The notes under the pieces are model-generated. The model ran no database searches and had not been told where the DNA came from. It saw only the letters and a list, made by a program, of their open reading frames with translations. Shown one piece after another: positions 1,896 to 31,619 of a stretch of 64,000 bases of DNA. A program made the position numbers and the translations under genes. The stretch's first letter is position 1. Every line of letters starts with the position of its first letter. The DNA comes from an uncultured Oleiharenicola sp. GTDB taxonomy: Bacteria; Verrucomicrobiota; Verrucomicrobiia; Opitutales; Opitutaceae. The stretch is taken from the NCBI GenBank assembly GCA_964515595.1, contig CAZEUN010000001.1:246282-310281 (forward strand). Reading direction: 5' to 3'.

Positions 1896-3151
1896 CACTC
1901 CACTGACGCGGCCATCGCCAGCAGGAGCTCCCGCCCGAAGGCGGTGCGCTGCTCCGAAGTCGGATAGCCGTTGAGTTTTTTGCCGGGATTGACCCGCGCC
2001 TCGACGAGCGCCAGGGGCACGTTGTATTCCACCCACCACGGGGCCGGGGAACCCGCGGGCCGATCGAAACCACGCCGCATCCGCGTCGGCTGCGAAGGAT
2101 CGAACTGCGTGCGCCCGATGAGCAATTGATCGAGGCGCTCCAATCGCGGCACATCCGCGGCCGTGGGCGCCTGGGTGATCATGTATTCGCCGTTCGTGTT
2201 GTGCAGGTGCACGAACAGGGAAATCCGGCGGCCAGTCGCCGCATAGTCGCGGAGCGCCTTCTTGTAATACCAGATCTCGGGCGTCTGCTGCAGCCAGCGC
2301 GGCTCGCGCAGGTCGACCTCGTCCCAGTGCCGGTTGAAATCCCAGCCGTTCGCGTTGAACCGCACGCGACCCAGCGCCGAACCGTCCGGGTCCATCATCG
2401 GCGTGAACAGGAGGATGTATTTCTCCCGCAGCGCGCGGGCTTCCGGGTCGTCCGACACCGCAAACTTCATCGCGCCTTCCGCGATGAACGACGTCGGCGA
2501 TTCCCACGCATGGTCGCGCGCCTGCAGCCAGATGGTTTTCTTCTGCGCGTCCGGGGTCTGGAAGTCGGTCACGGTCACCACCGGGAGATCACGCCCGAGC
2601 ACGCTTTTCCCGACGACCTCGACGCGCGCATGCGGCGAGGCGGCGATTTCATCCAGCAGGCGCACCAGGCGCGAATGCGGGTAAGGCGGCACCATCGCAA
2701 ACCACACGGAATCCGTTTCCGGACGGATCCGCACGGTCTGCTCCTTCTTCGCGTCGTCCCACTCCAGGTTGGGCACCGACGCCCACTGCGCGTTGTCACC
2801 GCTGACGACCGGCCGCGACTCGGCGTTCACCGGCGAGTTCGGGCGGTCGTTGTATTCGCTCGGGAGGTAGCCCGTGAACGTGATTTTCAGGTCGCGGCCG
2901 CGGACGTTATCCATGCGGAAATAAAACCAGGTCGCCTGGCGATTGCGTCCGCGCCGGTCCTGCTGGCCGGGGACATGCACGCGGAATTCCGTTTCACCCA
3001 GCACCTCAACCAGGCCCATCGCGCCACCCTCGAAGCTGGCGCTGAAGCGCACCGCATCGGCCGGCCGGGATTCCTGCGCCGCCAGAGGCGGAAGGACCGC
3101 GAGCAGCAGGCTGACAAAGCGAAAGGCCGCGACCCGGGATAAAAGCTGCAT
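1895..3151 (-). CDS. M14-type zinc carboxypeptidase-like protein (cytosolic-carboxypeptidase-like), signal peptide
   Basis: FSASFEGG N-domain, PYP motif, ARDHAWE (HxxE), NPDG-like MMDPDG, DFNR, second Zn ligand in FVHLHN. Start placed at MQLLSR (3151). The stop overlaps the GH36 start (ATGA). Confidence 0.8.
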   Translation of the reverse strand: MQLLSRVAAFRFVSLLLAVLPPLAAQESRPADAVRFSASFEGGAMGLVEVLGETEFRVHVPGQQDRRGRNRQATWFYFRMDNVRGRDLKITFTGYLPSEYNDRPNSPVNAESRPVVSGDNAQWASVPNLEWDDAKKEQTVRIRPETDSVWFAMVPPYPHSRLVRLLDEIAASPHARVEVVGKSVLGRDLPVVTVTDFQTPDAQKKTIWLQARDHAWESPTSFIAEGAMKFAVSDDPEARALREKYILLFTPMMDPDGSALGRVRFNANGWDFNRHWDEVDLREPRWLQQTPEIWYYKKALRDYAATGRRISLFVHLHNTNGEYMITQAPTAADVPRLERLDQLLIGRTQFDPSQPTRMRRGFDRPAGSPAPWWVEYNVPLALVEARVNPGKKLNGYPTSEQRTAFGRELLLAMAASVE

Positions 3152-3222
3152 GAGGATGCGCACCGTCGCAACAGGTGCAGACAGCGCGCCGGGCGCGGGG
3201 TTCTCGAAGGAAAAGCGCGGCA

Positions 3223-5130
3223 TCATTGCGCGGGTTGGTCAAGTTGCGCCGAGAGCTGCTGCAGCCACTCCTCGATGTTCGTGTAGCCGTCATGGTCATC
3301 GTCGGCATTGGGCTTCGCGGGGATCGGCGTGGCCCAGTGCGACGGGTTCTGCGCATACACCGGCCAGCCGCCGGCTTCCGCGACGGAATTGCGCACCCGG
3401 CCCGGCCGGTCCTTCGCGACCGGAATCTTCGCCCCGCGCGCGATCTCGTCGATGATGCGACGCTCCATGGGATCGCGATCGTTTGGCCGGGCGCCGGCGG
3501 AACGCAGCACCACGTCAAAGGCCTCGCGCGCCGGCAACGGCTTGAAGCCGTCCAGGCCATGACCCTGCGCCGTCGGATCACGGTCAACCAGGTACGGCGT
3601 CAGATTGGGATCCACCAGCGGCGCCGGCGAGGCGCGTTCCCCGGGGTTATAAACGTTGTCGGCCTGGTAAATCTGCGTGCCCGCCGGCGGCTTCTGGCGC
3701 GCGATCGGGGACGCCGTCAGGCTCACCAGCGACGCGCCGTCGATGAAGGTGTTGCCCACGGCCGCCAGGTGGATCGGGTCCGACCAGTAGTCGGTGTGCC
3801 CGATCATCAGGAAGCGGTTGCGGCGGTTGTAGAGGACATTGTTCGCGAAGACGAAGTGCTTCGAATTCGCCCACGGGCCGCGCTCCAGGACGTGCGCGAT
3901 GATCGACCCCGTGAAGGAAAGCCGGCCCGCAGCCGAGGTGCCGGAGCCAAAGAGCGGCCCCATGGCGTGGCCCTGCGCGAGCGAAAGCAGATCGACACCC
4001 AATTTCCAACCCGAGCTGGCCGGGTTGCGGCCGGTGATGATCAGGCGCACTTTGAGGGACGCCAGCTTCGGCGGGATGATGAAACCCGTGGACCCGGTCA
4101 GCGACGTATAGGACACCGCGCCGGCGGCCGGCGCATACTGGTCAAATTCCTCGCTGGCCTGCAGCAACTGTCCGTCGGGATCCCGCACCTCGACCTTGAA
4201 CCTGGCGCGATCGGGTCCGGTGATGCCGCCCACGACCAGGTGCTCGTCGAGCCGGCGCGTGTCATCCGGAATGACCGGGACGATGTACTCGATCGCATCC
4301 CCCTCCGAGTCGGCCGGCACGAGTTGGTACGCACCACTCAGCGCCTGCGGGCTCGCCACCATTTCCGCCCCGGCGAAACCAAACGAGTGCGCCGTCAATT
4401 TTTCCGCCTCCAGCGGCAAATGGTGCGGGAAGGTGCCCTCGTCCACGTGGATCGCGCGGAACAGCGGCTCGGCGAACAGGCAGCGGCTGAAGGTGACGTC
4501 CTCCCAGGCGTTCCACGTGCTCGCAATTTCGTCGAGCGACCAGGCGAAGGTGCAGTGATCGAAGACGACATTGGTCAGGGTCCCGGTGCGCCCGCAACTG
4601 ACCTCGACCGCGTCGCGATTGTGCGTGTGCGGATCCGGCAGCCAGCGGTCGCCCGGGCGGATGCGCAGGTGCTCGATGAGCACATGGCTCCCCTGGACCA
4701 TCAACGACGCGCCGTGCAGCGCGATGCCCGGCGACGGTGCCGTCTGGCCCGCGAGGGTGAGATCGCCGTTCGCGATGACCAGTGTGCCGCCCAGCTCGAT
4801 CACGCCGCTGAGGTCGAACACCACCACGCGCGGCCCGCTCGCGCAAACGGCGGCGCGGAGCGATCCGGTGATCGGATCCTTGTTGTTGCCGTTGTCCGCG
4901 AGCGTCGTCACGTGGATGACGCGCGAGTTCGCCCCGAAGCCGGCGGAATTGGCCGCGCGGTCCAGACCGTAGCCGTAGACGCCCGGCAACAGTTGCGGGG
5001 CCGCGCGCAACGGCGTGAAGGCGGCCGCCCCCAGGGCTAAAACCAGCGAGAGACGCGCGGCGAGGCCGGCGGCCCGGCGCAGGCGCAACCAGCCGGCACC
5101 GAGGCAACCAGGGATCAGGATGAAATTCAT
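3223..5130 (-). CDS. PL1 pectate-lyase-like protein, paralog 1 (catalytic domain with internal insert, no C-terminal modules)
   Basis: VIHVTTLAD...GSLRAA...GPRVVVFDLSGVI, TLAGQTAPSPGI, HLRIRPGD, NRDA, FDHCTFAWSLDE, RGP, C-terminal DDDHDGYTNIEEWL. Start at MNFILIPG (5130). Confidence 0.85.
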   Translation of the reverse strand: MNFILIPGCLGAGWLRLRRAAGLAARLSLVLALGAAAFTPLRAAPQLLPGVYGYGLDRAANSAGFGANSRVIHVTTLADNGNNKDPITGSLRAAVCASGPRVVVFDLSGVIELGGTLVIANGDLTLAGQTAPSPGIALHGASLMVQGSHVLIEHLRIRPGDRWLPDPHTHNRDAVEVSCGRTGTLTNVVFDHCTFAWSLDEIASTWNAWEDVTFSRCLFAEPLFRAIHVDEGTFPHHLPLEAEKLTAHSFGFAGAEMVASPQALSGAYQLVPADSEGDAIEYIVPVIPDDTRRLDEHLVVGGITGPDRARFKVEVRDPDGQLLQASEEFDQYAPAAGAVSYTSLTGSTGFIIPPKLASLKVRLIITGRNPASSGWKLGVDLLSLAQGHAMGPLFGSGTSAAGRLSFTGSIIAHVLERGPWANSKHFVFANNVLYNRRNRFLMIGHTDYWSDPIHLAAVGNTFIDGASLVSLTASPIARQKPPAGTQIYQADNVYNPGERASPAPLVDPNLTPYLVDRDPTAQGHGLDGFKPLPAREAFDVVLRSAGARPNDRDPMERRIIDEIARGAKIPVAKDRPGRVRNSVAEAGGWPVYAQNPSHWATPIPAKPNADDDHDGYTNIEEWLQQLSAQLDQPAQ

Positions 5131-5411
5131 GTCGGGATTTCTAGGGATTTGCTGACGGGAAGGTGCTCGCCGGAGAGCGAGCGGAAAAGCGGCGGCGCGC
5201 GGTGAGAATCCGAGCGTACCTGACCACACGCCGTTCTACGATTCGCGAATCCGGCCGCTGGCCATGAAGCCAGTTGGATCGGTCAGGCGCGCGATCATCC
5301 GGGGGAACGACCAACGTGGGTTTCTTGAGGGTAAGGGGTTGCATGAGCGACCGGGCCAGCCCATCGGGGAAACCGTAAGGTAACGCCCCTGGCCGCAGTC
5401 ACTAGCGACTG

Positions 5412-5432
5412 ACGGTTAACACATGTGACCAA
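5412..5432. promoter_or_regulatory. Candidate operator ACGGTTAACACATGTGACCAA (CACATGTG palindromic core), upstream of PL1 paralog 1
   Basis: 21/21 identical to 21680-21700; intergenic. Confidence 0.7.
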
Positions 5433-5499
5433 ACCCACCGCGGTGCCGGCCGGGCGAGCCGCGCGGACGGGACTTTAAACACTCCGCCGGGCGGCAGTT

Positions 5500-5531
5500 G
5501 CCGGGCCGCGCGGGAAACCGCGCGGCCCGGC
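5500..5531. terminator. Perfect 14-bp GC hairpin downstream of PL1 paralog 2 (terminator or mRNA stabiliser; no U-tract)
   Basis: GCCGGGCCGCGCGG-GAAA-CCGCGCGGCCCGGC. Confidence 0.45.
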
Positions 5532-5590
5532 ACTCCCCCTGCCCTCGGCGGGCCGGGGCCAGGGGACTTTTCACTTGCCGCGATCGCTGC

Positions 5591-8500
5591 CTAGGGCGCG
5601 GTGACGAGCACGTCGTCGAAGTCCGCCGTCAGGCCGGACGTCATGAGTGCCGCGCCGCCGGTACCGGACGCGAACGTCGTATCGTTGGCGCGCACGAGCA
5701 GCTGGCCGTCGACATAGCCCCGCAGGCAGGTGCCGATCACTTCCAGCCGGAGCGTGTGCGGCGTGTTCAACACGACGGTGAAGGGCTCCGAGTCGAGCAC
5801 CGTGGACGTGTTGTTCACGAGTTTCTTCAGTTCGAGGACGTTGCTCTGGCCCAGCTTCAGGTAGTAGTAGTTGGTCGCGTCATTGAAGCGGGCGATCAAC
5901 CCGGCCCACTTGTTCGTCGGCAGCGAGTTCGTCGGCGTAATGTCGGCCTCGACCGATTGATTGGTGACGAATCCGCCCTGCCGCGTGCGGGAGTCGGTCG
6001 CGCCCGTGGCGCTCTGGCGGTACAGCGCTGACGCCGCCGCCCACGACCCGCTCAAGGGCGTCCAACGGCTCACGTTCCCATCATTGAAGGTCTCCGCCAC
6101 GAGCACGGCGCCATCCCGCGTCGCGCCGGCGCTCACGTTGTCGTATTTCACGTCCGCGCGGTACATGAGCAGCCCGGCCTTGCCCGGAGGCAGGGGCGTG
6201 CTGTCCGTGGTCTGCACCTTGAGGACGCCGTCGACGTAGAGCTCCAGCGTGGTGGTCGGATAGCCGGAGACGACAAATCGCACGGTGTGGACATCCCCGG
6301 GATTCGTGGTGACGTTCACCACGGAACCGAGCGTCGTGTAGACGGTGTTGAGCATTTTTTTGATCTCCACCGTCGAACCGGTGATCTTCGCGTAGTAGTA
6401 ATTGTCGACGCCGGTGTAGCGCGCGCACAGGCCAAACCAGGCCCCGGGCGCGGCGGGATCGAAGCCCACCAGTTTCGCATCGGCGGTCACGGAGTGATCG
6501 TCGCTGAAGCTGTTGTCGAGGATCGCAAACGGCGCGCTCGCCGCGAACTGGGTTTGCTCGTAGACCTTGTTCCCCGTCTCGGCCGTAACCTGCCAGGTGC
6601 CGCCGGTGCCGCCGCTCGTGGCCGTCCAGCCCGTCGTGGCGCTGTTCTCGAAATCGTGGAAGGTCGTCGCGCGCGGCACGAGGGCGACCCGGAAGTCGTC
6701 GTACACCCCCGAGGTGTTGCTGCGACTAAAGAGTCCGGCTTTGCCCGCGCCCAGGCCCGGTTGCCACACGTTGGGCAGACACGCGACGCCGTTCACGAGG
6801 ATGGCCGTCATGTTGCCCCGCCGCCGCACGGTCGCGTTGAATGGCACGCCCGCGCCGCCGGAATAGACACCAGACGCCACCGTTTGGGGCGAGCCGCCAT
6901 TCGTCACGCTGCTGACCTCGACGTCACCCGCGGTATTGAAGGTCACATAATTGTAGTTGCTCGAATTGACGTAATTATAGACGAGGCCGACGCGGTTGCC
7001 GGTGCCTCCCCAGGTCGTGGTCAGCGTGGCGCTGACGGAGTAATCCGTCGCCCAGGTGCCGCCGTCGTAGAGCGCGATGGCCGCCGTGGTGTTTACCGTT
7101 TGCTTATAGTTATGCGGGGTGGTGTTGACGACCCAGGCTCCGGAAAGCACCGACCAGTTGGGCGCCACGGTGGTGGTCTCGTCGAAAGTCTCCGTGCGCA
7201 CCACCGCTTCCGCCGTCGAGCCTTCCACCTGCGCGGCCAGTTGCTGCAGCCACTCCTCCATCACGGTGTAGCCGCTGGCCAACACGGTCGTGGCATTGCC
7301 GGGCACCGTCCAAGTCGCCGTGTTTTGTTGGGTTCCGTCCGTGGGCCAGCCGCCGGCATCGGCCACGGAATTCACCAGATTGCCCGGGCGGTTGGCCCGG
7401 ACATTGATGACCTGCGCCTGGGCCAGATTGGTCATGACTCCCCGTTCCGCCGAGTCGCGCTCGGCCGGGCGGGCGCCGGCGTAAAGCACCCCATCGGCGA
7501 AGGCCTGGTTCGGTGACACCGGGACGAAGCCCGCCAAGCCCGCCGGCTCCGGCAGCGTGGGATTGGAAGTGACGAGGCGATTGTCGCTGCTGAGCGGGCT
7601 GGCAAACGCGCCATACTCCGACGGGTTCTCGGCCCCACCCTTGTTCCAGTCATTGTTGCTCACGTGAATCTGTGCGAGCGTCCCTGTACTCGCCAGACCC
7701 GTGTTATAGTAGAGCCCGGTATCGCCGCCCCAGGATTTCCCCTCGATGAAACGGTTGCCGACGATCTCCGCCTTCATGCTGGAGATCGCATGAGGGCTCT
7801 CCGCCTCATGGCCGAGCATCATGAAACGGCTCAGCCGGTTATAGAGCACGTTGTTCGCGAACAGGAATTGTTTCGAATAAACCCAGGGGCCGCGTCCCAG
7901 GAGGTGGGCAAAAACGGAACCCGTGAAGCTCAGCCGCCCGCCGGTGTCACTCCCCCAACCCAGGAGCGGGCCCATCGCGTGGTTCTGAATGAGGCCGATC
8001 TGGTCGATGCCAACACTGACGGCGGCACCGGGCTGGCCGAGCAGCACGACCCGGATGCGATAAGGCAGGTAGTCCGCCGTGGAGCCGGGAATCGTGAAGT
8101 GCGGACGAGTGCCGGCAATATGCTCCCCGATGAAATCCACGCTGTCGTAAGTTTGGGCGGGGTTAAAATCCTGGCTGGTATAAGCCGGGGTGCTGGCGGT
8201 GCCCGCGTAGACCTCAACGCGAAAGGAACCGCGGCCCGGACCCGTGATCCCGGTGATCAACGGCACGTTGCCGGTCCGGTTGGTGGCGGCGGACTTGATG
8301 TTGAAGCAGTACTCAATGTAATCGCCGGTATGCCCGGAAACGAGGTGATAGTTGTTGCCGGAGCCAATCCCCTTGGTGGGGTCCGCTGACGGCGTATAGG
8401 TCGTTCCGCTCGTGACGATCGTCTGGACCACGGCCGGCTCGGTGCTGGACCGCGGAAAGGATTCGGCCTGCAACGGGACGTTGGCCGTCTTCGGCGGAAG

Positions 8501-9223
8501 GGTGCCGTCGTAGAACTGTCCCTCGTCGATGTGGATCGAATAAGCGAGCGGCTCGACGAAGGCGCAGCGGTTGAAAGTGACGCCGTCCCAGTTGTTCCAG
8601 AGCTGCACGGATTCATCGAGCGTCCATTGAAACGTGCAATGATCGATGACAATGTTCTCAAGTGAATTGGCGCCCGTGGCTCCCTCGATCCGGATTGCAT
8701 CCCGATTGTGCGTGGGGATGGCGTTCCAATCGTCACCCGGCCGGATCCGCAGGTGCTGGACCAGCACATTGTCCGCGCTGATGACGAACGACCCTCCCTT
8801 GATCGTGATGCCGGGCCAGGGTGCCGTCTGGCCGGCAATGGTGCAATCGGCCTTCGAGAGACTCAGATCGCGCTTCAACGTGATCGTGCCACTCTTCCGG
8901 AATACGATCACCCGGGCACCCGTGGTGGTCCGGGCGAGCACCTCGCGGAGCGAATTCGCGATCGTCGACTCACCGGCGCCGTAGTCGTCGAGGTTCGTCA
9001 CCTCGATGACTTCGAAGTTGCCCTTGAAGCCGGCGGCGGCGGTCGAGGTTCGCTCCAAGCCATAACCGTATACGCCCGGCAGCAGTTGCAGGGCCTGCAG
9101 GCGAAGGCCGCCCAGCAGGAGGAGGGCGAAGGCCGAAATTGCGGAAACAGCTCGGAGAAGTTTTCCGAACGGGGCATGGCAAACTACCGGGCGGGCGGAG
9201 CCCGCGGAGGTCAGATTTTTCAT
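5591..9223 (-). CDS. PL1 pectate-lyase-like protein, paralog 2 (internal insert plus three C-terminal ConA-like/CBM66-DUF1080-like beta-sandwich modules)
   Basis: Signal peptide; QLLPGVYGYG; TIAGQTAPWPGI; HLRIRPGD; IDHCTFQWTLDE; RGPW. Three repeats of (E/H)(T/D)F(D/E/N)...W....G.W...NYY...G..GL....(Y/F)D(D/N). Confidence 0.85.
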   Translation of the reverse strand: MKNLTSAGSARPVVCHAPFGKLLRAVSAISAFALLLLGGLRLQALQLLPGVYGYGLERTSTAAAGFKGNFEVIEVTNLDDYGAGESTIANSLREVLARTTTGARVIVFRKSGTITLKRDLSLSKADCTIAGQTAPWPGITIKGGSFVISADNVLVQHLRIRPGDDWNAIPTHNRDAIRIEGATGANSLENIVIDHCTFQWTLDESVQLWNNWDGVTFNRCAFVEPLAYSIHIDEGQFYDGTLPPKTANVPLQAESFPRSSTEPAVVQTIVTSGTTYTPSADPTKGIGSGNNYHLVSGHTGDYIEYCFNIKSAATNRTGNVPLITGITGPGRGSFRVEVYAGTASTPAYTSQDFNPAQTYDSVDFIGEHIAGTRPHFTIPGSTADYLPYRIRVVLLGQPGAAVSVGIDQIGLIQNHAMGPLLGWGSDTGGRLSFTGSVFAHLLGRGPWVYSKQFLFANNVLYNRLSRFMMLGHEAESPHAISSMKAEIVGNRFIEGKSWGGDTGLYYNTGLASTGTLAQIHVSNNDWNKGGAENPSEYGAFASPLSSDNRLVTSNPTLPEPAGLAGFVPVSPNQAFADGVLYAGARPAERDSAERGVMTNLAQAQVINVRANRPGNLVNSVADAGGWPTDGTQQNTATWTVPGNATTVLASGYTVMEEWLQQLAAQVEGSTAEAVVRTETFDETTTVAPNWSVLSGAWVVNTTPHNYKQTVNTTAAIALYDGGTWATDYSVSATLTTTWGGTGNRVGLVYNYVNSSNYNYVTFNTAGDVEVSSVTNGGSPQTVASGVYSGGAGVPFNATVRRRGNMTAILVNGVACLPNVWQPGLGAGKAGLFSRSNTSGVYDDFRVALVPRATTFHDFENSATTGWTATSGGTGGTWQVTAETGNKVYEQTQFAASAPFAILDNSFSDDHSVTADAKLVGFDPAAPGAWFGLCARYTGVDNYYYAKITGSTVEIKKMLNTVYTTLGSVVNVTTNPGDVHTVRFVVSGYPTTTLELYVDGVLKVQTTDSTPLPPGKAGLLMYRADVKYDNVSAGATRDGAVLVAETFNDGNVSRWTPLSGSWAAASALYRQSATGATDSRTRQGGFVTNQSVEADITPTNSLPTNKWAGLIARFNDATNYYYLKLGQSNVLELKKLVNNTSTVLDSEPFTVVLNTPHTLRLEVIGTCLRGYVDGQLLVRANDTTFASGTGGAALMTSGLTADFDDVLVTAP

Positions 9224-9441
9224 CGGGAATCAGGGAGGGAGGGTTGTCTAGCGGTGCTGCCGACCGGAAAATTATTCACGCGCGCTCCGTCCACCGGCCA
9301 GCCGGCCACGACGGGCATTGGGGTGCGGGGTCCGCGGGCGTGAAGCGGGAATCAGCGCCGAACCGTTCAGGCCGGCGCCGTTCCGTCAGTCATGGATGAA
9401 CCGGGAAAAACATTCCGACCAGGGTCGAAATGGAATGGAGG

Positions 9442-12180
9442 TCAGGGCGAAGTCACGATCACGTTGTCGAAGTCCGCCGCGACGTAGTTGGTGCCCAGCG
9501 CCGCCTTGCCGGCGGGCAGGCCGGCGCCGCTGTTGCTGGTGTCGGTTGCCTCCACCATCAGCACGCCGTTGACGTAACCGCGCAGCTGAACCGGGTTCGT
9601 GCCCGACACCTCCAGGCGCAGGTTGTACCATTCGCCGAGGGTCACGGGAGTCGACGCGTGAGCCGCCGGGGTGAACTCGGTCGGCACGCCAGCGGCCAAT
9701 TTCTTCAATTCCACCGTGTTCGCGTCCGCGCGCAGGAGGAGGTAGTAGGCATTCGACGCATCCGAATGACGCGCATAAACGGCCGCGAAGCGATTCGTGC
9801 CGCTCTCGGCCGCGATCTTCACGTCCGCCTGCACCGTCTGGGAACTCACGTTCGTGCCGGTCACCGTGCGGCCCGACACGGAGGCCTGGCTGGTGAACTG
9901 GTAGACCCCGCCGGCGGCCTGCCAATAGGCGGTCGGCGCATCGGGCGTCCAGCCCGCCGTGCTGTTGGTGTCAAAGTCGCTGAGCGATTGCTGCACATCG
10001 GTCGCGTACGGGCTCGCGAAAACATCGTCGAAGCGCGCCTCGGCGTAGTTGGTCCCGACTGCGGCGAAGCCCGGCGGGAGCGGATTGCTGTCCGTGGCGC
10101 TGAGGTTGACCACCGCGCTCGTGCTCAGGTTGGTGACTTGCGCCGCCAGCGACGCGGCCGCGCCGGGAGCGGGATTGTTGACGGAAATGCGCACGGCGTA
10201 GGTCGTGCCCGTGGTGATGCTGAAGTTCGCCTCGGCGAGCGTCGTGATCAAAGTGGAGCTCGCGCCCTGGGTGATCTTCTTCAGTTCCACCTTGGTGGTG
10301 GAACCGTTCCGGAGGGTGACGTAGTAGGCATTGAACGGATCCTGGTAGCGCGCGTAAACGCGCACGAACCCGTTCGCATTGGAGAAGTTCACCGGCTTCA
10401 CCTTCGCCTCGACCACCTGGTTGAAGAAATTCGTGTTGATCAGAAAGGCCTGCGCATCGCCGCCGGTGTACGTTTGCGCCAGCTCCTTGGTGCCGGTCGG
10501 GACCGACCAGGCGCCGGAAACATCATCCGGATACCAGCCTCTCATGTCGTCGTCGCTGAACGTGTCGAAGGTCGCGATGCGCTGGTCGCCCTCGATGTTC
10601 CAAGCCGCATAATGGAGTGCCTCCTCCAGGTTGGTGTAGCCATCGCCATCAGGATCCTGATCCGGATTGGCTGGCAGGACAAAGTTCGCGGTTCTAACGA
10701 GATCGACCGGCGCCCACGGATTGGTCGCGGGGTCCAATCGCTCAACGAACGAGTTCGACCGCGCCTGAATGTTGCCGAAAAGAGCGGCGTCAAGCGGGTC
10801 GCGGCGCGCCGTGAATTTGCCGGCGTTCGATACCAGCTTGGCCTCCAGCACCGTCCGGTCGGCGGCCAGCGTCGATCCGGGTACGACGCGCGTCGACCAG
10901 GGCGTCCACTTCCAGTCACCGGAATTGGCATGCGGGTCGGTGGTATACTCCTTGGTGACCGGAGGAGTCGTCGAGCGGTCGCGGAAAAACGACGAGTCAT
11001 ATTGGTTCGTCACCGGCGACGGGAACCAGCCCGCGGAAATCGGCGGGGTCGTGGAAGAAGCAAGATTCAGCAGGCGGTTTTCGGACAGATAAGTGGTCAC
11101 GTTCGGAGTGCTGTTATCGATCACGTAGAAACCTTGGGCGGCGTTACCCGTGCCTGTTTCCGGGATGGTCTGGTCACCATTGGGCCCATGGAGCGTATAG
11201 GGCTGGCGGAGCACCACGTTGCCGACGGCGGAAACCGTCAGGTCGAACAAGTCATCTCCCGCATCAATGGTGCCGATATATATGGCCCGCTTCTCCCCGT
11301 ATCTGGGGTTATAGATGAAGTTGTTCGCGATTTGCACACCGCGGGCCATGTCGCGAATGAGCGGATTCCGCTCCAAGTTGAAGGCCATCACGTTTCGGAT
11401 CAGGGAAACGTTGTCGGTGTGCGGTCCCACGACCGGTCCATAACCGTGCGCGCCTCCGTTGGGATGACCGGCGTAAATCACCGGTTGCCCCACTAACGAG
11501 CGAGAAATCGTGACGCCATCGACCTCCCCATAGGGCAGAGGTCCGTCGACGCCACCGGTGTCTCGTTTGTCGTCGGGGTCACTCGACCAAAATGACACCA
11601 CTTCGTCCGTGGACCAGCTGCACGAGACGTGATCGAAGACCACGTTCGACACCGTTCCGCTCGATGGCGTAATCTTGATGCAGTCGCGGTTGTCGATTCC
11701 CGCGAGTTTCCACTGATCGGTGACATTCGCATGCAGGTAGTTTCCCGGGCGGATCGCGAGGTGTTGCACCAGCACGTCGTGGCCCAGCACCATGATCGCG
11801 CCGTTGCGCAGCGTGATTCCCGGCCAAGGGGCCGTTTGGCCGGCGATAGTCAGGTAGCTGTGGTTGGCCCGGACGATCAAATCGCCCTGCAGCTGAATCA
11901 CCCCCGAAGTGTCGAAGACGATTACCGTGGGCGTATTGGCCAGGCTCGAGTGCTCCACACCATATCGCAAGGTGCCCGGCACCAAGCCGGCATTGTTCAA
12001 GGCGGGGTCATCCAGTCGGGTCACTCGATAGACGTTGGTGGCGCCGCGGGCGGCCGCGGACTGGCTACCGAAGCCAACAATGCCGGGGACGACCGGGATG
12101 GCTTGAAGGGATTGAAGGGAGACCAACAGCAAGCCGAGCGCGGGAAGCATTCGGCTGCGCATTGTACAGTGCGTTTTCAT
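9442..12180 (-). CDS. PL1 pectate-lyase-like protein, paralog 3 (canonical uninterrupted beta-helix plus two C-terminal ConA-like modules)
   Basis: TIAGQTAPWPGI; NRDC; FDHVSCSWSTDE; GHPNGGAHGYG short loop; RNPLIR (RxPxxR); DPDGDGYTNLEE. Start at MKTHCT (12180). Confidence 0.87.
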   Translation of the reverse strand: MKTHCTMRSRMLPALGLLLVSLQSLQAIPVVPGIVGFGSQSAAARGATNVYRVTRLDDPALNNAGLVPGTLRYGVEHSSLANTPTVIVFDTSGVIQLQGDLIVRANHSYLTIAGQTAPWPGITLRNGAIMVLGHDVLVQHLAIRPGNYLHANVTDQWKLAGIDNRDCIKITPSSGTVSNVVFDHVSCSWSTDEVVSFWSSDPDDKRDTGGVDGPLPYGEVDGVTISRSLVGQPVIYAGHPNGGAHGYGPVVGPHTDNVSLIRNVMAFNLERNPLIRDMARGVQIANNFIYNPRYGEKRAIYIGTIDAGDDLFDLTVSAVGNVVLRQPYTLHGPNGDQTIPETGTGNAAQGFYVIDNSTPNVTTYLSENRLLNLASSTTPPISAGWFPSPVTNQYDSSFFRDRSTTPPVTKEYTTDPHANSGDWKWTPWSTRVVPGSTLAADRTVLEAKLVSNAGKFTARRDPLDAALFGNIQARSNSFVERLDPATNPWAPVDLVRTANFVLPANPDQDPDGDGYTNLEEALHYAAWNIEGDQRIATFDTFSDDDMRGWYPDDVSGAWSVPTGTKELAQTYTGGDAQAFLINTNFFNQVVEAKVKPVNFSNANGFVRVYARYQDPFNAYYVTLRNGSTTKVELKKITQGASSTLITTLAEANFSITTGTTYAVRISVNNPAPGAAASLAAQVTNLSTSAVVNLSATDSNPLPPGFAAVGTNYAEARFDDVFASPYATDVQQSLSDFDTNSTAGWTPDAPTAYWQAAGGVYQFTSQASVSGRTVTGTNVSSQTVQADVKIAAESGTNRFAAVYARHSDASNAYYLLLRADANTVELKKLAAGVPTEFTPAAHASTPVTLGEWYNLRLEVSGTNPVQLRGYVNGVLMVEATDTSNSGAGLPAGKAALGTNYVAADFDNVIVTSP

Positions 12181-12360
12181 CAGGTTATGGGGTTGACTGC
12201 GAGTTGGTGCTGCCGATGAAAAACAATTCCTTGGTGACCTGATCGGAAATGGAGGGCCGCTGCTTGCCGGCGAGCCGTCGGGCGCATGCGGTCGCCATCC
12301 CCGGCCCCGCGACCAGCGCGGGCCCTCCATTGATTTTTTTATGGCGCGATGCTCATGCGA

Positions 12361-15300
12361 TCAGGGTGCGATCACGCTCACGTCGTCGAAGTCCGCCGCG
12401 GCGCCCGCGGTCGCGAGCACCAGCTGGCCGGCGGGGTACGCGTCGTCGACCGCCTGGAGCAACAGGTTGCCGTCGCGATAGACCTTGAAGGAATTCCCCA
12501 CGGCGTTGAGCCGGAGGGCGACAACGGTGCCAGCCGTCACCGGGGTCGTCGCGGTCGCGAGCGTGGTCACGGCGGCGCCCTCGACCTTGAGCAACTCGAG
12601 CTTGTTGCCGTCCCGCAGCGCGACCGCGTAGTGATGCGTCGCGTCCACGTAGCGGAAGAGGAAGCCCGCCCAGCCGCCGGTCTGGCCGAAGCTGCGCGGC
12701 GTCACATCCAACTCAACGATCTGATCCGCCCAACCCGGCTGGCCGGTCACCGCCCGCGCCGGCGCGGCCGGATCCGCCTGGCGGTAAACCTGCGAATTGG
12801 CCGATTCCACGGACCAGGTCCCGGCCTCGGCCACCCAGGCCGTCGCGCCGTGCTCAAAGTCATCGGTCGCCAGCACCGGGCTGATCGGCGTCGGGTCGAG
12901 GTGCACATCGTCAAAGGCCACCTCCGTGAAATACGTGAGCAAGCCCGGGGCGCCGGAGGCGAAGGTCGCGTCCGACGCCTGGAGCTTGAGCTGGCCGTTC
13001 ACGTAGCCCTTCAACGTTGTTCCGACCACCTCCAGGGCGAGGCGATAAGTCGTGTTGGGTGCGACCGTGAACGCGACCGGGTTCACCAGATTCGCCGCGG
13101 TGTTGTTCACGATCTTCTTCAACTCGATCGTGTTGTTGGTGCGCAGGACCAGATAGTAGTAGTCGTTCAGCCCCTGCCGGCGCGCGACCACGCCGAAGAA
13201 GCGGTTCGAGCCGCTCACCGACAGCAGTTTCACGTCGGCTTCGACGAGCGTGTCCGCCCAGTTCACGTCACGGGTCGCGCGAATCGCCACCGACGTCTTG
13301 TCGGATTGCCGCCACGTGTGCGTGCCGGGTTCCTCCGTGAGCGTCCAGGTGCCGCCATCCGGCGTCCAGGCCGCGGTCGAGCCGCTCTCGAAGGTGTCGA
13401 AGATCGCGTTGGCCACGCTGACCGTCACCGGCGCCGACTCCGTCAGGTGCCCGGCGGCGTCGCGGGCCACCGCCGTCAGCGCATAGGACGTCTCGGTGAG
13501 CGGCACGGTATTCCAGGCCGCCGTGTATGGCGGCGCGGTGACCTCCGCGCCCAAGGCGGTGCCATTGACCTTGAACTGCACGCCCGCGATTCCGACGTCG
13601 TCGCTGGACTCGGCGGTCAGGGTGACCACGCCGCCGACCTTTGCGCCGTCCGCGGGCGAGGTCAGCGTGATCGAGGGGGCGTGTTGGTCGGAGACCGTGA
13701 TCGCCACGGCCGCCGAAGTGGTCGCATGCCCCGCGGCATCCCGGGCGATGGCCGCCAGCGTGTGCGCACCGGGGGCCGTCGACGCCGTGTTCCAATTCGT
13801 CGCATAGGGCGGCGTTGCGAGCTCGGGGCCGAAGTTGGCGCCGTCGAGCAGGAACTGCACGCCGGTCACGGCCACGTCATCTGCCGCCGTGGCGCTGAGC
13901 GTCACCACACCGCCCAGCGACGTGCCGGCGGCCGGCGCGGTCAACGCGACCGTCGGCGGGATCTGGTCGGCAACGGTGACCTGCACCGCGGCCGAGGTCG
14001 TGAAGTTGCCCTCAAAATCGCGGGCCACGGCGGTCAGCACGTGGCTGCCCGGCGCCGTCGCGAGCGTGGGCCAGCTGACGCCGAACGGCGCGGTCATGTC
14101 CTCGAGACCGAGCGCGGCTCCGTCGAGTTGGAACTGCACAGCCGCAACGCCGGCGTTGTCCGTCGCCGTGGCGAGCACCTCGACCGTGCCGTTTACCGTG
14201 GCTGCCGCGGCGGGCGCCGTGATCGCCACGATCGGGGCGGTTTGATCGGACGGATTGGCGAGCGTGCCATTGCCATTGATCGTGAACCGGTCCGCAACCA
14301 CATGGCCGGCGAGCTGCGTGCTGCCATTGACAATCACCGTGCCCTGCGGGGCGATGATCGAACCGTAGCAGGCGACGTTGCCGTTCAACGTGATTCCGCC
14401 GGAGGCCACGCGCACCTCGAGCCATTCCGGATGCGCGGCATTGCCCAGGCTGGCGTTGAACGAAGTGCCGCTCGCGAGGGTCAGCACGACCGGCCCGACA
14501 ACCTCGAGCGCGCGGTTGCCGTTCAGCGTGAGGCCTTGCAAATTATAGACCGCGGGCGTGGTCGCACCGGCGATGCCCAGCTGGAAGTTGCTCCCGCCGT
14601 TCGCCGTGAAACGGCCGTAGGTGCCGGGGGGCACCGCCACGATGCCGACGTTGCCGTTGAGCGTGAGGTCGCGGAGTGTGGCGAAGTCGCCGGCCCCCTG
14701 CCCCGTCGAGTTGATCGACACATTCCTCGTGCCGGTCGGCGCCGGAGGAGCGCTCACGACGGGCAACGCAATCGGATCCACGTGCCGCAGCAGGCTGCCG
14801 AGACGCGCGTTGCCGTTGAGCGTAATGCGGTGCGTGGTCGGAGTCGCAGCGCCCGGACCGTCGCTCACGCCGCCATAAGTCGGATGGCCGTTGAGCTGGA
14901 CGGTCGGCGTGCCGGGCACAAGGAGCTGCCGGTCAACCGCCGCGTTGCCATTCAGGGTGATGTCTTCCGGCAGCAAAACCTGGATCGAGCCGCCCACCGC
15001 GCCGTTCAGCGTCGGGGCATGGTTCACCAGGATGTCCGGCAGGATCGTGAGCGTGGTCGTGATGCTGCCGGCGAAATTCGGATCGGTCACCGTGGCGACG
15101 ACCGTGTAGGTTCCCGGGAGCGTCGGCGGCGTGGTCGAGCCGTTGTAAGTGATCGTGACCGGCAGGCCGTCGGGGACCGTCGTGACCGTCGCGGGTTTCG
15201 CGCTGCCGGAATAAGAGAAGGCGAGCTGACCAAAGGCAACCGTCACCGGCACCTTATTGACCGTGAGCGTGGCGGGCACACTCGTGACCGAGCCAAACGC

Positions 15301-17982
15301 GTTCGTGACGACGACGGAATAGTCAGCCGCCGCGGAGGTTTGCACGGCCGGCAGGGTCAACGACGGCGCCGAGGGCGCGCCGAGCGCCACGCCGTTGCGC
15401 TGCCACTCGTACGTGAGTTCCGGGGTGCCGGTGGCCGCCACCGTGAAGGTGACGGTGTCGCCCGAGGTCACGGTCTGCGAGGCCGGTTGCGTGGCGATCG
15501 CCGGTTCATGGGTGAGCACCGTGACGGTGAAATCGCGCGTGCTGGTGTTGCCCGCCGCGTCCGTTGCCGTGACGTGCACGCTCGTCACGCCCGGCGCAAA
15601 CAGGCTGCCCGAGGCGGGCGTGACAGTCGGCGTCACATTGCCATCCACCGCATCGAGCGCGGAAACATCGAAGGACACGCTCGCGCCGTCGGGGCCGGTC
15701 GCATCGGTCGTCAGGTCGCCGGGCGCCGTGATGACGGGCGCGAGGATGTCGGTCCCCGTCACCGTGACATCGTCCACATTGGGCAGTCCGGCCGCGGTGC
15801 CCTGGATGCTGACCACATTATTGGTGCCGCCGGCCAGGGTCGCGGGGACATCCAGCAGAACCCAGGCACTCGCGCCGCCCGTCGGGGCGAACGTGACGCC
15901 CTGCGCCGCTCCATTCACGACCACGGTCGCGCTGCGCGCCGCGCCGTCCAGCGCGTAGCGAATCCGCAGATACCGGGCGCCGCCCGTGCCGCCGTCGACC
16001 TTGTAGAAAGTCACCGTGCCGGCGCCGGGCGCGGTCACGTACCCGGTGCCATCCGGGCCGGCGGTGCCGGTCACGATGACACTGCCGCCTCCGAGCTGGG
16101 CGAACTCCGCCTGGTAATTGTTGCCGGCCACCGCCGTGCCCTCGAGGGCGTCCGACAATTGCTGCAGCCATTGCTCGATGTTGGTGTAGCCATCGTGGTC
16201 GTCATCGTCGTTCGGATTCGCGGGCAACGTCCAGGTCGCGGGATTTTGCGCATAGACCGGCCAGCCGCCCGCCTCGATCACGTTGTTCTTGGTCTTGCCC
16301 GGACGCTGCAGGAGCGCGGGCTGCGTGGCGCCCACCGCGATGTCATTCATGACGCGGACTTCCATGATGTCGCGATCGTTCGGGCGCGCGCCCACGGAAA
16401 GGAGGACGGCCCGATAAGCTTCAGTGGACGGCAGCGGCATGTAGCCATCCGTGCCGTGGCCACCCTCGATCGGGCTGCTCGTGACGCGGTAAGGTTCAAG
16501 CAAGGGGTCGTAAAGCGGCGAGGCATTGGTACGATCGCCCGGATCGTAAGTGTTGTCGGTTTCGAACAGCCGCGAGCCGGCCGCAATTTTCTGGCGCGCG
16601 ATGGCGGGCCGGGCGGACGTGCCCATGTTCTGGCCATCGATAAACGTGTTGCCGACCATCGTCGCGTTCATCGGATCGGGCCAGTAGTCGGTGTTGCCCA
16701 TCATCGCGAAGCGGTTGCGCCGGTTATAAAACACGTTGTTCACCATCTGGAATTGCTTGGCGGCGACCCAAGGCCCGCGCTCGAGGATGTGCGCGATGAC
16801 GTTATTATTGAACGACAGGCGACCGGTACCTTCCTTGCCGGAACCGAAGAGCGGTCCCATGGCGTGGCCTTGGGAGAACGAAAAGAGATCAATGCCGATC
16901 TTCCAGCCGGTGCTGGCCGGATTCCGCCCCATCACGGTTACCCGGACCTTAAGCTCGGTGGTGCCGAGAGGGACCGTGAAGCCGTTGATATCGGTGCGCC
17001 CCACGTAGGAAACTGCCTCAGACGTCGGAGAGTACTCGTCGAACACGATGCTTTCCTGGAGCGATGTGCCGTCCATCGTCCACACCTGCAGCTTGAACCG
17101 GGCACGGTCGGGACCGGTGATGCCTCCCAGCACGATGTGTTCCTCGGTAAATTGATTGGTGGTCGGCAGCGTCTTGACGATGAAATCGAGCGTGGCGCCG
17201 TCGCCGGACGCTTCCCATTCGCGATACGAACCGCCGATGGCGGCGGGGTGTGTGACCGGGACCGGATCGCCGAAGCCCGTCGGCGTGACCGCGAGATCCT
17301 CCACCGCCGGCGGCACGTTATTGGGGAAGGTGCCCTCATCCAGGTGAATGGAGCGGAAAAGCGGCTCAGCGAAGATGCACTTGTTGAAAGTCACGTCTTC
17401 ATATGCATTCCACGTGCTGGCCATCTCATCGAGGGACCACGCGAACGTGCAGTGATCGAACACGACATTCCGGATCACCGTCGAGTTGCCGGAGTCCGCG
17501 GCCACGGCGTCACGGTTGCTGGTGTTGGGATTCGGCAGCCAGCGGTCGCCGGGGCGAACCCGCAGGTGCTGGATGAGAACGTTGCTCGTGGCCACGACGA
17601 GCGGCTGGCCGTGCAACGCGATGCCCGGCGACGGCGCGGTCTGCCCCGCGATGGTCAGGTTGGGTGACCGGATCGCGAGCACCTTCTGCAGTTCAATGAT
17701 CCCGCTGACGTCGAAGACGACGACGCGCGCGCCGCTGACCTTCACCGCGGCGCGCAGGGAGCCGGGCGTGGGCGTCGTGTCGTTCCCGTTGTCCGCGAGC
17801 GTCGTGACGTGAACGATCTTCGAGGTGGCCCCGAATCCCGCGGTGTTGCTGGCGCGGTCGAGGCCGTAGCCGTAGACTCCGGGGAGCAGTTGCGGGGCGG
17901 CTTGGAGGTTGGACAGTCCGAGCGAAAGCGCGGCGAAAGACAGGGCCTTCGTGATCACGCGCAGGATTTTGACAGATTTCAT
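12361..17982 (-). CDS. Giant multimodular PL1 pectate-lyase-like protein, paralog 4: PL1 with insert, CBM35/CBM6-like, HYR, Ig, MBG-like, LNGN-repeat solenoid, 3x bacterial Ig, 2x ConA-like
   Basis: PL1 motifs as in paralog 1. YQAE...G.GYV...RYA...VNG...PTGG...W...PNVD (CBM35-like). APVITAP...ASGSLF..G...TATDAAGN (HYR). TQPASQTV...TFTV...YEW (Ig). Three P(T/I)V.(I/L)TAP...D..GV..VQF..G..LG.E....P(F/Y)...W.T repeats. Confidence 0.87.
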   Translation of the reverse strand: MKSVKILRVITKALSFAALSLGLSNLQAAPQLLPGVYGYGLDRASNTAGFGATSKIVHVTTLADNGNDTTPTPGSLRAAVKVSGARVVVFDVSGIIELQKVLAIRSPNLTIAGQTAPSPGIALHGQPLVVATSNVLIQHLRVRPGDRWLPNPNTSNRDAVAADSGNSTVIRNVVFDHCTFAWSLDEMASTWNAYEDVTFNKCIFAEPLFRSIHLDEGTFPNNVPPAVEDLAVTPTGFGDPVPVTHPAAIGGSYREWEASGDGATLDFIVKTLPTTNQFTEEHIVLGGITGPDRARFKLQVWTMDGTSLQESIVFDEYSPTSEAVSYVGRTDINGFTVPLGTTELKVRVTVMGRNPASTGWKIGIDLFSFSQGHAMGPLFGSGKEGTGRLSFNNNVIAHILERGPWVAAKQFQMVNNVFYNRRNRFAMMGNTDYWPDPMNATMVGNTFIDGQNMGTSARPAIARQKIAAGSRLFETDNTYDPGDRTNASPLYDPLLEPYRVTSSPIEGGHGTDGYMPLPSTEAYRAVLLSVGARPNDRDIMEVRVMNDIAVGATQPALLQRPGKTKNNVIEAGGWPVYAQNPATWTLPANPNDDDDHDGYTNIEQWLQQLSDALEGTAVAGNNYQAEFAQLGGGSVIVTGTAGPDGTGYVTAPGAGTVTFYKVDGGTGGARYLRIRYALDGAARSATVVVNGAAQGVTFAPTGGASAWVLLDVPATLAGGTNNVVSIQGTAAGLPNVDDVTVTGTDILAPVITAPGDLTTDATGPDGASVSFDVSALDAVDGNVTPTVTPASGSLFAPGVTSVHVTATDAAGNTSTRDFTVTVLTHEPAIATQPASQTVTSGDTVTFTVAATGTPELTYEWQRNGVALGAPSAPSLTLPAVQTSAAADYSVVVTNAFGSVTSVPATLTVNKVPVTVAFGQLAFSYSGSAKPATVTTVPDGLPVTITYNGSTTPPTLPGTYTVVATVTDPNFAGSITTTLTILPDILVNHAPTLNGAVGGSIQVLLPEDITLNGNAAVDRQLLVPGTPTVQLNGHPTYGGVSDGPGAATPTTHRITLNGNARLGSLLRHVDPIALPVVSAPPAPTGTRNVSINSTGQGAGDFATLRDLTLNGNVGIVAVPPGTYGRFTANGGSNFQLGIAGATTPAVYNLQGLTLNGNRALEVVGPVVLTLASGTSFNASLGNAAHPEWLEVRVASGGITLNGNVACYGSIIAPQGTVIVNGSTQLAGHVVADRFTINGNGTLANPSDQTAPIVAITAPAAAATVNGTVEVLATATDNAGVAAVQFQLDGAALGLEDMTAPFGVSWPTLATAPGSHVLTAVARDFEGNFTTSAAVQVTVADQIPPTVALTAPAAGTSLGGVVTLSATAADDVAVTGVQFLLDGANFGPELATPPYATNWNTASTAPGAHTLAAIARDAAGHATTSAAVAITVSDQHAPSITLTSPADGAKVGGVVTLTAESSDDVGIAGVQFKVNGTALGAEVTAPPYTAAWNTVPLTETSYALTAVARDAAGHLTESAPVTVSVANAIFDTFESGSTAAWTPDGGTWTLTEEPGTHTWRQSDKTSVAIRATRDVNWADTLVEADVKLLSVSGSNRFFGVVARRQGLNDYYYLVLRTNNTIELKKIVNNTAANLVNPVAFTVAPNTTYRLALEVVGTTLKGYVNGQLKLQASDATFASGAPGLLTYFTEVAFDDVHLDPTPISPVLATDDFEHGATAWVAEAGTWSVESANSQVYRQADPAAPARAVTGQPGWADQIVELDVTPRSFGQTGGWAGFLFRYVDATHHYAVALRDGNKLELLKVEGAAVTTLATATTPVTAGTVVALRLNAVGNSFKVYRDGNLLLQAVDDAYPAGQLVLATAGAAADFDDVSVIAP

Positions 17983-21573: not shown

Positions 21574-21679
21574 AAGGCGTGGGTAACAGGCTTCGGGGAG
21601 GAAGGGGTGGGCCGATTCAAAGGAAATCCGACCCACACTGCGCACCGTAGCCGCTGGGCGGGCGTCAACCCAGCAACAC

Positions 21680-21700
21680 ACGGTTAACACATGTGACCAA
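21680..21700. promoter_or_regulatory. Candidate operator ACGGTTAACACATGTGACCAA upstream of the TonB-dependent receptor
   Basis: Identical to 5412-5432; additionally flanked by CACAC/GTGTG. Confidence 0.7.
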
Positions 21701-21712
21701 GGTGTGAATTTT

Positions 21713-25219: not shown

Positions 25220-25236
25220 AGCCACTGGCTGCTGCT

Positions 25237-25264
25237 CCCGGGGAGGAGCTGGTTTACAAGCGAT
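25237..25264. promoter_or_regulatory. Second conserved intergenic motif (CCC.GG.AGGAGCT.GTTTACAAGCGAT), copy 1
   Basis: 25/28 identical to 37598-37625. Confidence 0.5.
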
Positions 25265-25343
25265 CCGACGCATTGTCCGGCGGCGCGCGCCCTGCATCGC
25301 TTGCAAGCAAGCTTCGACCAGGGGAGCCGCCTTCCCGCGACAC

Positions 25344-25358
25344 GCTCACTTGTGCGAC
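25344..25358. promoter_or_regulatory. Operator variant (reverse complement GTCGCACAAGTGAGC) upstream of DUF2264 #1
   Basis: Nearly identical to the 26676-26690 site. Confidence 0.5.
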
Positions 25359-25424
25359 TCTGGGTTGAATGGCGTCGGGCTGGACGCCATCCGATCGTCC
25401 CCCAACTCCATTCCGCCAATTCCT

Positions 25425-31614: not shown

Positions 31615-31619
31615 CGCCC

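Follow-up and report, generated by a model that had tools for sequence, protein, structure and literature searches.

A CBM84-like module nested in the catalytic beta-helix of PL1-type lyases from an uncultured Oleiharenicola sp.

Introduction

The closest described relatives of the proteins reported here are PfPL1 of Pseudoalteromonas fuliginea (Protein Data Bank (PDB) entry 9buj) and PelZ of Dickeya, both belonging to subfamily 2 within polysaccharide lyase family 1 (PL1_2). PfPL1 provided the first structure of this subfamily; Arg220 is its catalytic arginine, and its C-terminus carries an alpha-helical adornment that ends in a Ca-binding, EF-hand-like motif (PMC11229556). In PL1 enzymes the loops at the turns of the helix frame the substrate groove. 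Enzymes of different specificity differ in structure mainly in these loops, which are believed to govern how substrate is recognised (PMC6003464). In the Vi-antigen lyase VexL (PL1_13, 6fi2), specificity is set by these loops, the substrate-contacting Lys195 lies on an earlier turn, Arg232 is the catalytic arginine and Arg235 forms a bidentate salt bridge to a substrate carboxylate (PMC6003464). The present analysis concerns a stretch of 64,000 nucleotides from an uncultured Oleiharenicola sp. (contig CAZEUN010000001.1; the window), in which four paralogs, P1 to P4, encode PL1_2-like proteins. Carbohydrate-binding modules (CBMs) are normally carried as beads on a string, joined by linkers. In P1, P2 and P4, a CBM-like module is instead built into the catalytic beta-helix beside the predicted catalytic arginine.

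The window contains 61-70% G+C and long open reading frames (ORFs) on both strands. The genes of the lyase region were assigned to the minus strand from the third-position GC content (GC3) of about 0.79-0.86 in the called frames. The P1 start was placed at the ATG used by homologues, which gives 635 amino acids (aa); the longest ORF reaches 5229. P1 is identical to a database protein of 635 aa (P0001). Coordinates given in the original prediction were correct to the base; the strand had been left unstated, and all four genes lie on the minus strand. The paralogs were as follows.

3223-5130, minus: P1, secreted PL1_2-like lyase, 635 aa, without extra terminal modules; the smallest insert-bearing paralog
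5591-9223, minus: P2, 1210 aa, PL1_2-like lyase (aa about 46-667) followed by C-terminal ConA-like/DUF1080-like repeats
9442-12330, minus: P3, ORF of 962 aa, insert-less PL1_2-like paralog with C-terminal lectin-like repeats
12361-17982, minus: P4, 1873 aa, multidomain, insert-bearing PL1_2-like lyase

Results

A folded module between two conserved histidines

The inserted modules and the corresponding site in P3 were located as listed.

3970-4446, minus: P1 insert, aa 229-387, 159 aa; a beta-sandwich resembling CBM84, set within the beta-helix
7982-8530, minus: P2 insert, aa 232-414, 183 aa; the module as in P1, longer by about 24 residues close to its N-terminus
16867-17343, minus: P4 insert, aa 214-372, 159 aa
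11434-11472, minus: P3 short loop AGHPNGGAHGYGP, the site at which P1, P2 and P4 carry the insert

On the minus-strand translation each insert starts directly after (A/S)IH and stops directly before HAMGP. The lengths first put forward (159, 183 and 159 aa) are exact codon counts of these intervals. They compare with 3-6 residues between the two conserved histidines in P3 and PfPL1. P3 has the canonical short loop that had been described for it, reading YAGHPNGGAHGYGP at this site, i.e. AGH-PNGGA-HGYGP.

Alignment of the inserts recovered the common motifs listed earlier: (L/V)(E/Q)A(E), Y, GITGP(D/G)R, F and (L/I/V)G(V/I)D. A hidden Markov model (HMM) of the insert matched those of P1, P4 and P2 at E of about 1.9e-64 to 2.6e-64, 6e-61 to 1.7e-60 and 1.8e-39 to 5e-39, respectively, and matched nothing else in a six-frame translation of the whole window. 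At the sequence level the sharing of the insert by three paralogs is therefore far beyond chance. The P4 insert is 46% identical to that of P1.

The P1 insert (229-387) was all-beta in an AlphaFold2 model of the full protein, with a block predicted local distance difference test score (pLDDT) of 90-98. Modelled alone from 25 insert sequences, it reached a pLDDT of 93.1. It is thus predicted to be folded, as it had appeared from the letters, and not disordered.

The catalytic module

The NCBIfam PelZ model (NF041900) matched all four paralogs at E = 2e-31 to 5e-35 (P1, 5e-35). Scores were 109-122 bits, far below the equivalog cut-off of 840 bits, so that on this measure P1-P4 are homologues of PelZ and not PelZ orthologues. 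The split match anticipated for a PL1 model was seen here: PelZ matched P1, P2 and P4 in two stretches each and P3 in one (75-373). Pfam PF00544 (Pectate_lyase_4) gave no match at E <= 0.01 in any of the four. Among the homologues listed only P0107 carries PF00544, which indicates a model of low sensitivity for this branch.

In phmmer and profile searches with the catalytic part, PfPL1 (9buj) was the one sequence relative of solved structure. A family profile of 58 sequences matched it at E = 3.9e-53; profile positions 49-224 aligned to PfPL1 33-195 and positions 379-561 to 195-395, the two blocks abutting at residue 195, and positions 225-378 were without counterpart in PfPL1. The full P1 model, built on the same 58-sequence alignment, had a mean pLDDT of 92.5 and a predicted template modelling score (pTM) of 0.89. 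Its best PDB match by Foldseek was again 9buj (E = 4.6e-16), and further matches were 6fi2, 1pxz, 7xks and 1bn8 (VexL, Jun a 1 and Bacillus pectate lyases including BsPel). The modelled fold of P1 is a right-handed parallel beta-helix like that of solved PL1 structures. The assignment of the paralogs to PL1 was upheld by the PelZ matches, by PfPL1 as top structural match and by the invariant catalytic arginine described below.

P1-P4 have the same parallel beta-helix catalytic module as PfPL1 and PelZ. In common are the motifs RPGD, NRD, VVFDHC (vWiDH-like), WS.DE, His-loop-His and the catalytic arginine in RxP, together with, at the C-terminus, an alpha-helical adornment whose end is an EF-hand-like D.DGYTN.EEW. 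In P1 the last element is present as follows.

3262-3288, minus: P1 GYTNIEEWL, within DDDHDGYTNIEEWLQQL; C-terminal pseudo-EF-hand-like motif closing the PL1_2 module

Motifs of the GYTNIEEWL type are also found in P2, P3 and P4, with conserved columns G, Y, T, E and L. The C-terminal helices of P1 and its DDDHDGYTNIEEWLQQL motif would correspond to the alpha-helical adornment and pseudo-EF-hand of PfPL1. Differences from PfPL1 and PelZ are the 3-residue loop (P-K-G) of these enzymes, where P1, P2 and P4 have a domain of 159-183 aa, and the second arginine of RTPR in PfPL1, which is tryptophan in P1, P2 and P4. Identity in the structural alignment is 15%.

Relatives of the inserted module

The best Foldseek match of the isolated insert was 7ehg (MiXBM), with a TM score of 0.70 (query) or 0.82 (target) and a root-mean-square deviation of 2.9 Å over about 150 columns at 22% identity. 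It was followed by the module in the Paenibacillus xanthan lyase 6f2p. Further matches, at E of about 1e-4, were to CBM35, CBM6, CBM4, CBM36, CBM61, MAM and Cry domain III. Among these matches was a uronate-binding CBM35 (2w47, in complex with delta-4,5-anhydrogalacturonic acid). Against PDB sequences the insert profile matched only 7ehg (3.8e-5), 6f2p 767-899 (3e-4) and 6fhj 921-970 (6e-3). The insert has the beta-sandwich fold of CBM84 modules and is superposable on 7ehg and 6f2p, and a C-terminal signature, tG(R/K)N.(A/S)S.G(W/Y)KL.(I/L)D..sL, is common to the insert and all three PDB sequences. The segment GG.Y....N....IEY.vP is also common to the insert and CBM84 modules. CBM84-type xanthan-binding modules raise the affinity of enzymes for xanthan (PMC10881899; PMC10049358).

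The insert also differs from this family. Known CBM84 modules are terminal in PL8 xanthan lyases, in the glycoside hydrolase family 9 (GH9) xanthanase PspXan9 and in the endo-xanthanase MiXen, whereas the insert is nested in PL1; and its conserved GITGPDR loop is absent from the aligned CBM84s. The nearly invariant arginine of this loop in P1, which has no match in the three aligned CBM84 structures, is a candidate substrate or interface contact.

4207-4209, minus: P1 Arg308 (insert residue 80, GPDR)

The insert is related to CBM6 and CBM35 transitively, through its profile, and by fold. Terminal CBM6, CBM35, CBM_35_2 and Golvesin_C modules are of the same fold class and are remote homologues (insert-profile E about 1e-23 to 1e-6). 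All of these relatives are appended modules, and the insert is nested. The description of the insert as CBM6/35-like accordingly holds at the level of fold or superfamily (jelly-roll). As a family assignment it fell away, the Pfam models being silent, and the nearest named family is CBM84 and not CBM6/35 proper.

Splice point and active-site residues

According to DSSP assignment of the model and the order of motifs, the acidic pair of WSLDE, the His-[insert]-His segment and ERGPW lie on three consecutive turns, each in the loop that follows the third strand. From the split of the profile and the alignment to PfPL1, the splice point is the loop one helix turn before the catalytic arginine. In PfPL1 the local sequence is H191-P-K-G-H195-H196, and S-R220-T-P-R223 follows 25 residues after residue 195. 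The corresponding residues of the paralogs were as listed.

3880-3882, minus: P1 Arg417 (in ERGPW), predicted catalytic base, 30 residues after the insert end, aligned to PfPL1 Arg220
3871-3885, minus: P1 ERGPW, RxPR counterpart
about 7883-7894, minus: P2 RGPW, RxPR counterpart
16768-16782, minus: P4 ERGPW, RxPR counterpart
11359-11373, minus: P3 ERNPL, RxPR counterpart with leucine at the position of the second arginine

The PfPL1 paper (PMC11229556) names Arg220 and Arg235 as catalytic. The present alignment gives a glutamate at residue 235 of the 9buj chain, with R220-T-P-R223 as the motif. Arg235 is probably a numbering slip, Arg232 and Arg235 being the VexL numbers, and Arg223 is used in this text.

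Given its position one turn before the catalytic arginine, the module should sit at the substrate groove; at the catalytic centre it would stand out from the groove's rim and, being N-terminal to that arginine, should flank the minus (non-reducing) subsites. The earlier statement that the insert lies beside the active-site groove and not at a terminus was borne out for its loop, and contact with the groove is read from alignment.

The catalytic arginine (R417 of P1, in the RxP motif) was invariant in 58/58 aligned homologues. Within the 41 insert-bearing sequences (the insert clade) R158, G160, D161, R172, D173, D191, H192, W197, D200 and E201 were also invariant, as were E221, H228, H388, G391, R417, N430, Y434 and N460; N431 was conserved in 40/41. 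Such strict invariance of motifs, at a mean core identity of 52%, argues for retained catalysis in the insert-bearing proteins and for selection on it.

A second set was invariant only in the insert clade: D230 and E231, shortly after His228, G418 (39/41), W420 (in RGPW) and R436, a new invariant arginine at YNR. W420 aligns to R223 of PfPL1, the counterpart of VexL R235. The second arginine of RxPR is thus tryptophan in 41/41 insert-bearing sequences and leucine in P3; it is kept in 5/17 insert-less relatives and is therefore not strictly defining for this branch. The loop lysine of PfPL1 (K193) is lost in the insert clade. Taken with the changes found only in this clade, this loss suggests that gain of the module was accompanied by a remodelled catalytic centre.

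P3 departs from P1, P2 and P4 at about 11500-11600 on the minus strand (aa about 245-285), with an 8-residue insertion (NYLHANVT) after RPG and, in the loop that follows WSTDE, an insertion of 19 residues, DPDDKRDTGGVDGPLPYGE, that is acidic and rich in Gly. The DPDDKRDTGGVDGPLPYGE insertion is a different solution at a neighbouring turn of the groove.

Distribution and origin of the nested form

The insert profile was searched against 1.84 billion representative proteins and gave 324 matches at E <= 1e-3. In the top group (E <= 7e-30) the module lies at about residues 200-415 with PL1 sequence on both flanks; the nested-form group comprises 12 full-length clusters and three fragments, one of the fragments being a lower-ranked match. 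After a gap, from E = 4e-23, about 300 relatives have the module terminal or between other modules. Their hosts include GH5, GH28 and chondroitinase-B-like (PL6-like) enzymes, and Pfam names the same coordinates CBM_6, CBM_35, CBM_35_2 or Golvesin_C. The module is thus a member of a CBM family that is widespread in appended form; the nested form is, in these searches, confined to one small group.

Insert-bearing proteins with a named source all come from Lacunisphaera, Opitutaceae or Verrucomicrobiota, and none of these source-named proteins bears a functional name. One peptide pattern, taken from an insert alignment that had been extended into the flanks, was run against 185,579 species genomes and found at least 7 loci, all in Verrucomicrobiota; this is a lower bound and no census. 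The taxonomic search proposed with the original prediction thus placed the nested form in one clade, whose named or located members are all Verrucomicrobiota.

In a neighbour-joining tree built from beta-helix core columns only, the 41 insert-bearing sequences were monophyletic, and a single origin of the insertion is shown at the level of this tree. The sister sequence, P0060, is insert-less and has a 19-residue loop that already contains IHVDEG. P3 groups elsewhere, with P0104, P0107 and P0116, and its core is 30-33% identical to those of P1, P2 and P4. P3 had been proposed as a built-in insert-free control. It is a distant paralog from another PL1_2 branch and therefore cannot serve as an isogenic or insert-free version of the same enzyme.

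No characterised PL1 with the insert had been expected. This holds for PfPL1, the one solved PL1_2 structure, and for the PelZ model, both of which are without it. Full-text literature searches turned up no account of a CBM placed inside a PL1 beta-helix, nor of this architecture in a PL1 of Opitutaceae, an absence that is not proof of novelty. On present sequence collections the architecture appears rare and is seen only in Opitutaceae-type Verrucomicrobia.

Discussion

Proposed role of the nested module

The insert-bearing proteins are probably active, secreted PL1 lyases in which the CBM84-like module, as a fixed wall of the groove or an additional subsite, determines specificity for a uronate-containing glycan that bears decorations. 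By this mechanism the short His-loop-His (H191-P-K-G-H195 in PfPL1), the beta-helix turn between the acidic pair of WSLDE and the catalytic ERGPW, would have been replaced in P1, P2 and P4 by a complete beta-sandwich of 160-185 residues of the CBM84/CBM6/CBM35 kind. Cleavage would still proceed by beta-elimination through the invariant arginine. On the non-reducing side of the groove the module would supply this wall or further subsites and would select or position a decorated, uronate-containing and possibly branched polysaccharide. Changes specific to the clade (the HxDE motif, Arg-x-Pro-Arg to Arg-Gly-Pro-Trp and the new invariant Arg436) would act with it. An ancestor of the Opitutaceae type would have gained the module in a single event, and gene duplication would have spread it afterwards. 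For the insert-bearing lyases we infer substrate contact, an effect on specificity and the identity of the substrate, and for the insert a binding or specificity role; the module probably alters which acidic polysaccharide is cut. The insert is not a substitute for an ordinary terminal CBM, because many insert-bearing homologues, probably including P4, also carry terminal CBM6/35 modules.

Other glycan-active enzymes also hold folded modules in active-site loops; examples are the PA14 domain of GH3 beta-glucosidases, the chitinase insertion domain of GH18 and, in the beta-helix of the P22 tailspike, the dorsal fin. Such nested modules build one wall of the substrate site and fix chain-length or side-chain specificity. 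They are of other folds and families, and the analogy is one of principle only. VexL shows a PL1 beta-helix at work on a non-pectin bacterial polyuronide; unlike the insert clade it has no inserted domain, keeps the second arginine (R235) and is periplasmic.

Several points weigh against this role. In sequence the insert is only weakly similar to CBM84 modules (about 22% identity; E 4e-5 to 6e-3), so that it may, but need not, bind carbohydrate. Pfam searches of the three isolated inserts at E <= 10 matched no family, including CBM6/35 (PF03422, PF16990 and PF18099). Contact of the module with groove or substrate is deduced from alignment and general PL1 topology. The carboxylate-binding arginine is replaced by tryptophan, so that the substrate and even activity may differ from those of known PL1 enzymes. 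Within the insert clade, mean pairwise identity is lower in the insert (41%) than in the core (52%), which fits a specificity element and fits a less constrained decoration as well.

A further-reaching version of the same proposal is put forward tentatively. The insert, the Arg-to-Trp change and Arg436 (possibly with Arg308 in place of the lost loop lysine) could be an integral part of the active site and add to its minus side a new subsite that takes a neutral or branched sugar, retargeting PL1 from homogalacturonan to a heteropolymeric acidic glycan, xanthan-like or another glucuronate-containing glycan of bacteria or plants. If so, a new subfamily of PL1, new also in its specificity, would be represented by the clade, and the module would be the first CBM built into the beta-helix of a polysaccharide lyase.

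It is unlikely, though worth weighing first among the alternatives, that the nested domain is a steric lid or end-stop that blocks one end of the groove and turns an endo-lyase into an exo- or oligosaccharide-specific one, with no measurable affinity of its own. The insertion point at the catalytic turn would suit a lid; the insert-less PfPL1 has an open, shallow groove (PMC11229556), and the remodelled residues beside the catalytic arginine fit a reshaped, possibly closed, active site. However, both the fold of the insert and its only detectable relatives are those of bona fide polysaccharide-binding modules. A lid and a binding module are compatible and not mutually exclusive.

There is a lower chance that the insert is a structural or surface-display decoration, serving stability, oligomerisation or attachment to envelope or protein, without a role in substrate recognition. 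Its conservation below that of the core would agree with this, as would the size of P2 and P4, which are large, multidomain and probably surface-associated. The conserved residues E15 and D152 of the insert may simply form the structural Ca site of this fold, as in CBM6/35 structures. Yet the active-site-loop position is kept in 41/41 homologues and the insert co-varies with the active-site substitutions W420, R436 and D230/E231; a terminus, where other modules are already present in these proteins, would be the easier place for a decoration.

Loss of the loop lysine (PfPL1 K193) and of the second arginine (R223 to W), together with the adjoining gene for a TonB-dependent receptor, could point to proteins that are no longer lyases and serve as glycan-binding beta-helices, e.g. 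as surface lectins feeding the transporter. This is improbable, as the catalytic arginine and the acidic and histidine motifs are strictly invariant at 52% mean core identity, and the position of the second arginine varies in insert-less relatives too. Finally, long spurious ORFs do occur on both strands of this GC-rich window, but a mis-assembly, frameshift or chance ORF is extremely improbable given a GC3 of 0.83-0.86 in the called frames, a confident single-chain fold prediction and more than 40 homologues of the same architecture in independent NCBI, JGI, ENA and Logan assemblies, which in themselves exclude an artefact.

The nested architecture is real, rare and lineage-restricted, and is of moderate interest until a function is shown. 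If the module shapes the groove, as proposed, it would represent natural engineering of specificity by domain insertion in beta-helix lyases and could bring to light a PL1 activity directed at an acidic glycan other than pectin. This clade, which is small, restricted to one lineage and has several paralogs per genome in a glycan cluster, offers a tractable entry to polysaccharide degradation in Opitutaceae, which is poorly understood. P1, with 635 aa and no other modules, is a good experimental target.

Other modules of P2, P3 and P4

P4 combines a nested and a terminal CBM-like module in one protein. For the terminal module the Pfam models CBM_35 (E = 5.5e-4) and CBM_6 (E = 6.2e-4) gave matches that stayed under the gathering score, and the insert HMM gave none. 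After the lyase, P4 continues with this CBM6/35-like module, HYR, Ig/I-set and MBG modules, a DUF7305-like stretch, three Big_7 modules and two ConA-like/DUF1080-like modules, which suggests a cell-surface-anchored or stalk-displayed enzyme. C-terminal repeats, two or three per protein, are present in P2, P3 and P4.

15733-16155, minus: P4 appended CBM6/35-like module, aa about 610-750, directly after the catalytic module
5594-7306, minus: P2 C-terminal repeats
9445-10533, minus: P3 C-terminal repeats
12364-13485, minus: P4 C-terminal repeats

The repeats are ConA-like, DUF1080/3-keto-disaccharide-hydrolase-like or GH59-C-lectin-like, with Pfam matches that are sub-threshold or barely above threshold, and have the motif YYY..L....LEL.K in common. 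A DUF1080 protein with xanthanase activity has been described in a review.

Gene neighbourhood

The surroundings of the lyase genes are a glycan-utilisation cluster, with genes as follows.

3-1892, minus: GH36/melibiase-like gene, running off the window start
1895-3226, minus: M14 carboxypeptidase-like gene downstream of P1; its start overlaps the P1 stop by 4 nt (3223-3226)
18103-21735, minus: TonB-dependent receptor, 1210 aa, with Plug domain, immediately upstream of the lyase genes
21713-23968, minus: heparinase II/III-like/DUF4962-like gene; its ORF overlaps that of the receptor by 23 nt
25125-43583: continuation of the cluster, with DUF2264 (twice), a 2-hydroxyacid dehydrogenase, two SSF transporters and GFO/IDH/MocA oxidoreductases
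31212-32801: CE15-like glucuronoyl esterase
within 25125-43583: PF12876 (sugar-binding cellulase-like), GH109-like and GH1 genes
42210-43583, minus: GH88/105

The ORF at 18103-21735 was considered as a fifth paralog, P0121 having the same length of 1210 aa, and was rejected on its identification as a TonB-dependent receptor. The pair of receptor and heparinase-like genes looks like an operon of the polysaccharide utilisation locus kind; no SusD partner was seen. The peptidase-like gene is an odd member of a glycan locus.

The canonical pectin set (GH28 and the carbohydrate esterases CE8 and CE12) was absent from the Pfam matches of the cluster, so that the target may not be classical pectin. 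One may speculate that this absence, the affinity of the module to CBM84 and the Arg-to-Trp change together hint at an acidic heteroglycan other than homogalacturonan.

Beyond about 44 kb the window holds housekeeping genes, which places the glycan locus on the chromosome and not on an obvious mobile element.

44812-64000: ParA-like ATPase, ABC-2 permeases, RNase III, Mfd/TRCF, SurA-like peptidyl-prolyl isomerase (PPIase) and RadC
44812-64000, also: cardiolipin-synthase-like phospholipase D (PLD), fatty-acid desaturase, methyltransferase, threonine synthase, aspartokinase and phosphoglycerate dehydrogenase

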